DNA of 28,953 bases from Patescibacteria group bacterium (GTDB lineage Bacteria > Patescibacteriota > Minisyncoccia > Portnoybacterales > UBA2143), in the NCBI GenBank assembly GCA_043814195.1, contig JBDRKH010000016.1:1-28953 (forward strand), given 5' to 3'. Of this stretch, positions 27,480 to 28,375 are shown in pieces (the first letter of the stretch is position 1; every line of letters starts with the position of its first letter). A program made the translations under genes and the position numbers. The notes beneath the pieces are model-generated. The model saw only the letters and a program-made list of their open reading frames with translations, was not told the DNA's origin and ran no database searches.

Positions 27480-27519
27480 CAGTAATTTAAAAAATAAATA
27501 AAGGAGGAGGTGAAAGAAA

Positions 27520-27639
27520 ATGCAGAACTTCTTTCTGATTTTGGAGACTAATGACACGGTTTTTTACGGAATAATTATTGGCGTTTTTTTATTAACTTTT
27601 GTTTTACCTAAACTCATTAAAAAGGTTTTAAGGAGGTAG
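27520..27639 (+). CDS. 39-aa single-TM peptide MQNFFLILETNDTVFYGIIIGVFLLTFVLPKLIKKVLRR (absent from the ORF track)
   Basis: SD AGGAGGAGGTG at 27502-27512; hydrophobic core and basic C-tail. Confidence 0.7.
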   Translation: MQNFFLILETNDTVFYGIIIGVFLLTFVLPKLIKKVLRR

Positions 27640-27641
27640 AG

Positions 27642-27836
27642 ATGGATATCCTATTAGCAACTATCGGTTTGCTCGGCTTCTTTCTGATTATGGGCGGAGT
27701 CGGCGGAATAGAAACTGAATCCGCCGGACTCTTTGAAGGGATTATGATTTGTTCGGTTGGGCTGGTTCTTTTCGGCGGAGCTATTATGGTTTTCAACAAG
27801 AGGCGGAATGGAAAACGAGTCCGCCGGATTCCTTGA
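27642..27836 (+). CDS. 64-aa two-TM small membrane protein
   Basis: SD AAGGAGGT at 27630-27637 overlapping the end of the upstream ORF; two Gly-rich hydrophobic segments and a basic tail. Confidence 0.72.
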   Translation: MDILLATIGLLGFFLIMGGVGGIETESAGLFEGIMICSVGLVLFGGAIMVFNKRRNGKRVRRIP

Positions 27837-27850
27837 AGGGAAGAATCTAA

Positions 27851-28375
27851 TTAAAAAGTCGTCTTGATAAACTGGGCGGCTTTTTTAATTGTTTCTTGGA
27901 TAATTGGTTTTTCTTGTTTGGTAAAGTTTTGGAGAACGAATTTTTCTGTGTCAATGGCTATTTCTGAATCCGCTGGCCTGATGCCGATTCTGATTCTGGT
28001 GAAATCTTTGGTGTTTAGAGCGTTAATAATAGACTGAACGCCTTTATGTCCAGCCGAACCGCGGTTCGGCTGGATTTTAATTTCTCCTAAGGCTAAATCA
28101 ATGTCATCATGAATAACGATAATGTCCTGGGCTGGGATTTTGTAATAATCTGTCAAGGTTTTGGCTGCTTGGCCAGAATTATTCATAAAATCTTGGGGTT
28201 TAGACAGAATAACTGATTCTTGATTGATTTGTTTTTTAAGATAAAGGCAATTAGCTTTTTTGTTTTTTTGCCAGGATTCTTTTCCAGCTAAAAAATCCAC
28301 AACCATAAAGCCGAGATTGTGTCGGGTTTTTTGATATTTTTCTCCGGGGTTGCCTAGGCCAATAATTAATTTCAT
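27851..28375 (-). CDS. pth: Peptidyl-tRNA hydrolase
   Basis: MKLIIGLGNPGEKYQKTRHNLGF, KPQDFMNNSG, VIHDDIDL, GSAGHKG, RIRIGI. Confidence 0.98.
   Translation of the reverse strand: MKLIIGLGNPGEKYQKTRHNLGFMVVDFLAGKESWQKNKKANCLYLKKQINQESVILSKPQDFMNNSGQAAKTLTDYYKIPAQDIIVIHDDIDLALGEIKIQPNRGSAGHKGVQSIINALNTKDFTRIRIGIRPADSEIAIDTEKFVLQNFTKQEKPIIQETIKKAAQFIKTTF
27853..27886 (+). terminator. Intrinsic terminator of the RNA-peptide unit (lies within the last codons of pth)
   Basis: aaaaagtcgtct-9 nt-gggcggctttttt; its 3 G-U pairs form only on the + strand. Confidence 0.6.

Follow-up and report, generated by a model that had tools for sequence, protein, structure and literature searches.

Do a structured RNA and the two small membrane proteins encoded behind it form one RNA-regulated system, or are they parts that share a transcript and can do without each other? 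This question is raised by a locus in contig C16 (GenBank JBDRKH010000016.1) of a Patescibacteria genome designated G000 (472 kb, 94.6% complete). The window referred to below is this contig at its full length of 28,953 nt. By its Pth protein, the genome has Patescibacteria (CPR) metagenome-assembled genomes as relatives. On its + strand, between the divergent gene dprA and the convergent gene pth (peptidyl-tRNA hydrolase), a promoter is followed by a structured RNA domain, by two short open reading frames (ORF1 and ORF2) with one and two predicted transmembrane (TM) helices, and by an intrinsic terminator. The first-pass annotation of this DNA had taken these parts for a self-contained, RNA-regulated membrane-peptide system. 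The ORFs, their Shine-Dalgarno (SD) sequences, the TM character and the terminator that it described were all present where it had placed them and were accurate in detail. In this study, we found that the RNA and the ORFs are separable modules in one promoter-terminator slot and that the link between them is facultative. The reading that we consider probable is a transcript of the dual-function type, in which a small RNA (sRNA) domain is combined with an mRNA for non-toxic small membrane proteins.

ORF1, ORF2 and their families

ORF2 (27642-27836, + strand; ATG at 27642, TGA at 27834-27836) encodes 64 amino acids (aa) laid out as a two-helix TM hairpin. The first helix (TM1) ends in the Gly-rich motif GGVGG and is followed by a short acidic loop (IETESAG), a second helix (TM2) and the basic tail NKRRNGKRVRRIP; the C-terminal tail carries a net charge of +7. 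The Kyte-Doolittle profile over 19 residues peaked at 2.28 (residues 3-21) and 2.37 (residues 33-51). AlphaFold2, run with the family alignment, predicted a helical hairpin with helices at residues 2-24 and 30-61 and a pLDDT of 92.6.

The DNA downstream of the RNA was inspected in all 45 RNA-positive genomes of the order. In family f1, to which G000 belongs, 19 of the 27 RNA-positive genomes have a small TM ORF, preceded by a proper SD, right behind the RNA, and 16 of these 19 ORFs could be aligned with ORF2 as one family. The aligned members come from 15 genera and are 15-46% identical to the G000 protein. They share a start MK(K/R)K, a TM1 end GLLGFLLV-GGVG, the acidic loop IETxS, TM2 and a basic tail that often reads W(E/Q)K(K/R)n-LGL. 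When the ORF2 profile was searched against 59 genomes of the order, one match per genome was obtained in 21 of the 36 f1 genomes, always between the promoter or the RNA and pth, and none in the 23 genomes from sister families. E-values lay between 1e-12 and 1e-28 except in G024 (3e-5) and G057 (9e-4), and the match in G057, inside a 538-aa ORF, is regarded as spurious. The profile also found 13 matches in a database of 5.8 billion proteins and 76 among 1.84 billion representatives; these relatives are nearly all 54-93 aa long, and all lack both a Pfam domain and an informative name.

Comparison of codons within the ORF2 family showed an excess of third-position differences. The ratio of nonsynonymous to synonymous substitution rates (dN/dS) was 0.17 for L046 versus G056 (11, 9 and 26 differences at the three codon positions), and 0.34 for G008 versus G049; pairs that are more distant and saturated gave 0.24-0.49. 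The frame is open and the SD lies at the correct spacing in every member of the family. ORF2 is almost certainly a real gene, and it is a durable one: vertically inherited, single-copy, under purifying selection and specific to one Patescibacteria family.

ORF1 (27520-27639, + strand; ATG at 27520, TAG at 27637-27639) encodes 39 aa with one TM helix at about residues 14-31, preceded by an acidic N-terminal ETND motif and followed by the basic tail KLIKKVLRR. Its 19-residue Kyte-Doolittle peak is 2.19 (residues 15-33), and the net charge of its C-terminal tail is +5. Homologues that occupy the same slot as first cistron were found in G004 (46 aa), in G053 (43 aa, with no ORF2 behind it) and in the metagenome contigs L124 and L125 (44 aa). 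Phe, Gly and Ile at the start of the TM helix are invariant in the family (n = 4), with the acidic motif before them and the basic tail after them. dN/dS was 0.20-0.42, with dS saturated. In G012, a decayed 3' remnant of ORF1 still supplies the SD of ORF2. ORF1 is likely a real gene, and it represents an accessory first cistron retained in few lineages.

The first-pass annotation had proposed to look for homologues and to determine dN/dS, and both checks came out in favour of the ORFs. Each has homologues at the same position in other genera, and each shows dN/dS below 0.5 with a third-position excess. Judged by these comparisons of sequence, both ORFs are truly coding. No curated cut-off in Pfam, NCBIfam or PHROGs was reached by ORF1 or by any of the 23 ORF2-family members. 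Foldseek against the PDB returned nothing below E = 2 for ORF2, a helical hairpin not being diagnostic in such a comparison. The two families are uncatalogued and lineage-specific. Among the sub-threshold noise, weak matches to LAETG/NPXTG sorting signals (E 0.15-0.6) reflect no more than a TM helix plus a basic tail. ORF2 as SecG was rejected because SecG (PF03840) is encoded elsewhere, at C54:2606-2797.

The two ORFs share a stretch of 17 nt at 94% identity (27528-27544 and 27677-27693), which encodes FFLIL in ORF1 and FFLIM in ORF2. Codon shuffling equalled this score in 2 of 2000 trials, and the corresponding figure for the weak protein similarity was 69 of 5000. Duplication of a part, or conversion from one ORF to the other, is hinted at by this identity; the pair in G004 gives it no support. 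ORF1 as a truncated paralogue of ORF2 stays merely a lead, since hhalign returned nothing and the G004 pair shows no similarity.

The arrangement of the two cistrons suggests that their translation is coupled. The SD of ORF1, AAAGGAGGAGG, lies at 27500-27510, 9 nt upstream of its ATG. The SD of ORF2, AAGGAGG, lies at 27630-27636, inside the 3' end of ORF1 as the first-pass annotation had noted. It is made from the last two Arg codons of ORF1 (AGG AGG) and is followed by the ORF1 stop, two bases and the ATG of ORF2. Because this SD falls within the last codons of ORF1 and the stop lies 2 nt before the next ATG, ribosomes finishing ORF1 would open and re-use the start of ORF2. In G004 and L124, the stop of ORF1 overlaps the start of ORF2 as ATGA, which is a classic coupling geometry. 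One or the other geometry (ATGA or an SD inside ORF1) is kept in three lineages and supports translational coupling. Structure prediction of an ORF1-ORF2 complex gave a score of 0.01; it was run without controls and says nothing either way.

The promoter and a terminator embedded in pth

A sigma-70-type promoter (TTGACA-16-TGaTATAAT) was found at 27301-27328 (+), with a 12/12 match to the consensus and an extended -10 element. It overlaps the first codons of the divergent dprA (26412-27317, - strand; PF02481 on orthologous neighbours), whose start codon lies within the promoter region. A sequence scan found no other promoter-like site upstream of the unit, neither a terminator-like site nor a second promoter in the interval between the RNA and ORF1, and no - strand promoter overlapping ORF1 or ORF2. 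In relatives, the promoter is kept as TTGACAAA...TGnTATA(A/C)T, even in those without the RNA or without the ORFs.

At the other end of the unit, the terminator at 27853-27886 (+) lies inside the last 12 codons (...KKAAQFIKTTF*) of the convergent pth (27851-28375, - strand; PF01195 on orthologous neighbours). It consists of A5, GUCGUC, a 9-nt loop, GGCGGC and U6, and the region 27830-27900 (+) folds at -19.6 kcal/mol (z -2.6). Most f1 genomes show the same design, in which the last approximately 12 pth codons (...IKKAAxxIxxAL*) form a 10-12-bp hairpin on the + strand with a 9-nt loop, followed by a T-run. Across 14 genomes, 96.4% of the cells in the hairpin alignment were paired, compared to 29-69% when the partner was slid. 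Compensatory changes were present in 6 of the 10 pairs, and none of 500 shuffles reached the observed covariation. The + strand terminator that had been proposed in the 3' end of pth is thereby confirmed. This hairpin occurs with or without ORFs between it and the RNA, and it is therefore the terminator of the whole unit.

The - strand of the same region carries two palindromes, at 27831-27817 and 27731-27717, which belong to the copies of a direct repeat described below; behind each of them comes a stretch rich in U. The palindrome at 27731-27717 was flagged as terminator-like by the scan, and the one at 27831-27817 lies about 20 nt past the pth stop. These palindromes may terminate pth, and the transcripts of pth and ORF2 would then overlap at their 3' ends.

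The RNA and the ORFs are separable modules

The RNA domain (27336-27480, +) is 145 nt long and folds at -71.4 kcal/mol (z -7.1) into a three-way junction with a closing helix of about 29 bp. The loop of its P2 helix, AUCCCUCCUA, resembles an anti-SD sequence. Compensatory changes were seen in 16 of 51 pairs among 5 sequences. A covariance model of the RNA (R1) matched 45 of the 59 genomes of the order in single copy. None of these 45 RNAs departs from the loop (A/C)(U/C)CCCUCCUA, with or without ORFs downstream. No Rfam family matched the RNA at gathering or E-value thresholds. The Rfam models of the small signal recognition particle RNA (RF00169) and of 6S RNA (RF00013) matched nothing anywhere in G000, and the leader as a member of a known RNA family was rejected. 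An apparent short form, only 98-103 nt compared to about 140-145 nt elsewhere and without part of the structure, occurs in G053, G054, G021, G019 and G011; it retains the CCCUCCUA loop.

The RNA occurs without an ORF, abutting the hairpin in pth, in 8 of the 27 RNA-positive f1 genomes (G006, G010, G018, G011, G003, G021, G009 and G019) and in several sister-family genomes. In farther relatives, it precedes unrelated genes or none; L071 has a 119-aa lipoprotein-like ORF in this place and L081 a response regulator. Therefore, the RNA probably has a function of its own. The conservation of the RNA and its loop where no ORF follows indirectly supports a base-pairing or regulatory activity that would belong to the RNA itself.

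Conversely, ORF2 was found without the RNA in G012, G013, G024 and G055, where the promoter TTGACAAA...TGnTATAAT is followed by a short unstructured leader and an SD, and the RNA model detected no RNA at these four loci even with its filters off. In the metagenome contigs L124 and L125, the ORF1-ORF2 pair lies behind the same promoter, and its distance of only 73 nt to the start of dprA is too short to accommodate the RNA. The RNA-less loci amount to at least 4 genomes and 23 metagenome contigs, with a near-consensus promoter and a strong SD. The first-pass annotation had itself named ORFs that occur independently of the RNA as the observation that would speak against its proposal, and its expectation of co-occurrence did not hold at G012, G013, G024, G055, L124 and L125. 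In the RNA-less loci (L015/G012, L121/G013, L122/G024, L123/G055 and L124/L125), a conserved (A)GTTnTTTAACA motif follows the promoter after 10-40 nt, and in RNA-bearing genomes the same motif stands just past the RNA. The RNA therefore resembles a removable cassette between promoter and motif.

The occurrence of RNA without ORFs and of ORFs without RNA could also mean that the two are unrelated neighbours. The RNA would then be a stand-alone, trans-acting sRNA that ends past its closing helix, and the ORFs would use read-through or an unrecognised weak promoter, with no functional tie. In most relatives, the RNA is followed by the conserved AGTTnTTTAA motif or by a T-run, which fits this explanation, as do the unrelated genes behind the RNA farther afield. 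However, we consider it unlikely. G000 shows neither a terminator-like site nor a second promoter between the RNA and ORF1. The RNA-less ORFs use exactly the promoter that otherwise drives the RNA, so that one shared transcription start is to be expected where both are present. A preference for the pairing is hinted at by the sister family f6, in which one or two small ORFs with two TM helices and a basic tail likewise occupy the slot.

Short TM peptides with basic tails had also suggested type I toxins or holin-like proteins to the first-pass annotation. ORF1 and/or ORF2 would then depolarise the membrane, and the anti-SD loop of the RNA would block their SDs until a trigger arrived. Type I toxin-antitoxin systems (Hok/Sok, TisB/IstR, Fst/RNAII, AapA/IsoA) share with the locus small hydrophobic single-TM peptides with basic tails, to which ORF1 comes closest, a highly structured 5' region of the mRNA and an RNA element complementary to the SD; here, the loop CCCUCCU complements the AGGAGG of both SDs. 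The general description of such toxins, hydrophobic membrane peptides usually below 60 aa, suits the 39-aa ORF1 and the 64-aa two-TM ORF2, and some homologues have a Met-Met start. Class II holins and pinholins such as S21 of phage 21 resemble ORF2 in their 60-90 aa, two TM helices, both ends inside, charged C-terminus and Gly-rich TM1. The N-in/C-in topology of ORF2 that enters this comparison is predicted by the positive-inside rule.

The evidence on the other side makes a toxin or holin quite improbable. Where the RNA is cleanly gone, the ORFs persist with a promoter close to the consensus and with a strong SD, which argues against a toxin that depends on the RNA and also against a holin kept in check by it. 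The complementarity of the loop stops at the universal 6-nt AGGAGG, and the loop does not co-vary with the SD, being unchanged where the SD variant is GGGGG. Unlike type I systems, the locus has no antisense promoter over the ORFs, no antisense or overlapping antitoxin gene and no extended complementarity; its genes, which are under purifying selection, are single-copy and syntenic and pass vertically at one housekeeping locus, and the two-TM hairpin of the ORF2 family, at 54-93 aa, is longer than typical toxins. Unlike holin genes, ORF2 has no lysis cassette, endolysin or prophage around it, and neither PHROGs nor the holin families of Pfam gave it a match beyond noise. Of the self-contained RNA-regulated peptide system first proposed, one promoter-to-terminator unit that includes the RNA has stood, whereas the dependence on the RNA and the toxin or holin kind have not.

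Known systems, a plastic slot and what the locus means

In dual-function RNAs, an sRNA is combined with the message for a small protein that is often membrane-active (review PMC12612679). As in S. aureus RNAIII/hld and Psm-mec and E. coli SgrS/SgrT and AzuCR, a structured regulatory-type RNA and a short ORF would lie on one transcript in G000, with RNA and coding parts able to act independently. The locus has one promoter and, behind ORF2, a terminator, with nothing terminator-like found from the RNA up to ORF1; in relatives, a T-run past the RNA may cause partial termination. RNAIII has C-rich loops directed against SD sequences and also codes for a 26-aa membrane-active peptide. The G000 locus differs from these RNAs in that its RNA is a discrete 5' module that can be removed without touching the ORFs, and the reverse. 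It also has two coupled cistrons instead of one, its products are predicted to be integral TM proteins and not amphipathic peptides, and its RNA has no sequence or Rfam relationship to theirs.

The small membrane proteins that modulate larger complexes (AcrZ, MgtS, KdpF, CydX and SecG) resemble ORF1 and ORF2 in size, in consisting of TM segments only, in their basic cytoplasmic tails and in being chromosomal and constitutively placed. In contrast, they have no homology with the two ORFs, and no gene for a partner complex is adjacent to the locus. dprA, pth and an LCP gene flank the locus in every genome examined. Conserved, single-copy and fixed at this housekeeping position, the genes look less like a weapon than like an ordinary small component of the membrane. 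As a guess, their products may serve a membrane complex as a small subunit or as a modulator, or may form a small hairpin that oligomerises. The link to DNA uptake or host contact that had been suggested earlier found no backing beyond the neighbouring divergent dprA. The same contig also carries a tmRNA (2225-2569, -) and one tRNA-Leu (20248-20334, -).

In the dual-function reading, one strong constitutive promoter would give rise to a single transcript, about 550 nt long. The conserved RNA with the anti-SD loop would make up its 5' portion, and a bicistronic mRNA for two small proteins of the cytoplasmic membrane its 3' portion. ORF1, single-pass and probably N-out/C-in, would be translated from its own strong SD, and its translation would feed ORF2 through coupling. 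ORF2 would form a helical hairpin with both ends cytoplasmic and a short acidic loop outside. The transcript would end at the hairpin and U-run built from the last codons of pth. The anti-SD loop, if it acts on the SDs of the ORFs at all, would modulate only.

Several points weigh against this reading. Co-transcription and translation are deduced from the sequence of an uncultured organism. Within 3-15 nt of the closing helix of the RNA, most relatives have a T-run (AGTTTTTT); much transcription may end there, and the ORFs would be reached by read-through alone. Its counterpart in G000 is degenerate (TAATTT). Through this T-run, many relatives may set the sRNA free. Most pairs have a saturated dS, and the protein-guided codon alignment pulls dN/dS down. 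The ORF1 family has only four known members, and T-rich DNA easily gives hydrophobic ORFs. No known family, fold or partner pointed to a function.

The stretch between RNA and terminator is highly plastic. Members of genus g13 have in this place an ORF1-type gene alone (G053), a different ORF of 87 aa with two TM helices (G054) or ORF2 alone with the decayed ORF1 (G012). In f6, the RNA is followed by two further families of small proteins with two TM helices and basic tails (L056/G040, L057/G042 and L059/G029). One reads MNY...GESF...(W/F)ERRK (66-74 aa) and the other MKKF...CxRRRQSRxKSRRQG..TTVVL (85-93 aa). The idea that these are distant relatives of ORF2 is unsupported, with an hhalign probability of 12%.

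The ORF2 region also has a local 40-nt direct repeat. Copy 1 (27702-27741, +) codes for the loop of ORF2, GGIETESAGLFEG, and holds the palindrome GAATCCGCCGGACTC. Copy 2 (27802-27841, +) is 85% identical and codes for the last 11 residues of the tail (RRNGKRVRRIP) and the stop. It is out of frame because the spacing is 100 nt. Read in the +1 frame (ORF 27757-27867), copy 2 would give GGMENESAGFLEG, which repeats the loop motif, and 5 of the 6 differences between the copies are synonymous or conservative in that frame. A near-palindrome of 15 nt lies in each copy, and the copies can pair with each other (16 of 18 bp) through arms at 27717-27734 and 27814-27831 with a complementarity of 89%. Only these two local copies are present in the whole genome, and the repeat as a dispersed element was rejected. 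Its likelier origin is a recent duplication, out of frame, by which the basic tail grew longer; the less likely alternative is that it betrays a 1-nt assembly error.

Such plasticity invites the suspicion that the ORFs, ORF1 above all, are chance hydrophobic frames in a T-rich spacer between RNA and terminator. The missing homology between the f6 ORFs and ORF2 and the part of the ORF2 tail that stems from an out-of-frame duplication can be read in this way as well. We regard non-functional ORFs as very unlikely all the same, in view of profile E-values down to 1e-28 across genera, open frames and SD spacing in every member, the third-position excess with dN/dS of 0.17-0.49, and a coupling geometry kept in three lineages. 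A further and rather doubtful idea is that this stretch serves as a cradle, a highly transcribed T-rich trailer in which short TM genes are repeatedly born, duplicated, remodelled and lost. The contrast between ORF2 and the non-homologous f6 ORFs, the sporadic ORF1, the 17-nt identity and the tail derived from an out-of-frame copy of the loop allow this idea without showing it. If it is true, some of these genes were then fixed by purifying selection, perhaps with the anti-SD loop buffering the translation of young genes.

The arrangement itself is of a known kind, and the two small-protein families are new. Its design is compact, in that the last codons of one gene serve as the SD of the next and the last 12 codons of a convergent gene as the terminator. 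The RNA does not serve the peptides as their own leader or antitoxin, and this narrows the hypotheses on the RNA towards a role that is general or exerted in trans. Until a function emerges, the practical value stays modest. For the Patescibacteria, whose genomes measure 0.5-0.9 Mb, the locus adds two uncatalogued families of small membrane proteins to very reduced proteomes: the ORF2 family with about 76 detectable representatives in 1.84 billion clusters, and the ORF1 family with four known members, too short for gene callers. Small proteins are routinely overlooked, and in genomes as reduced as these each retained gene is informative.

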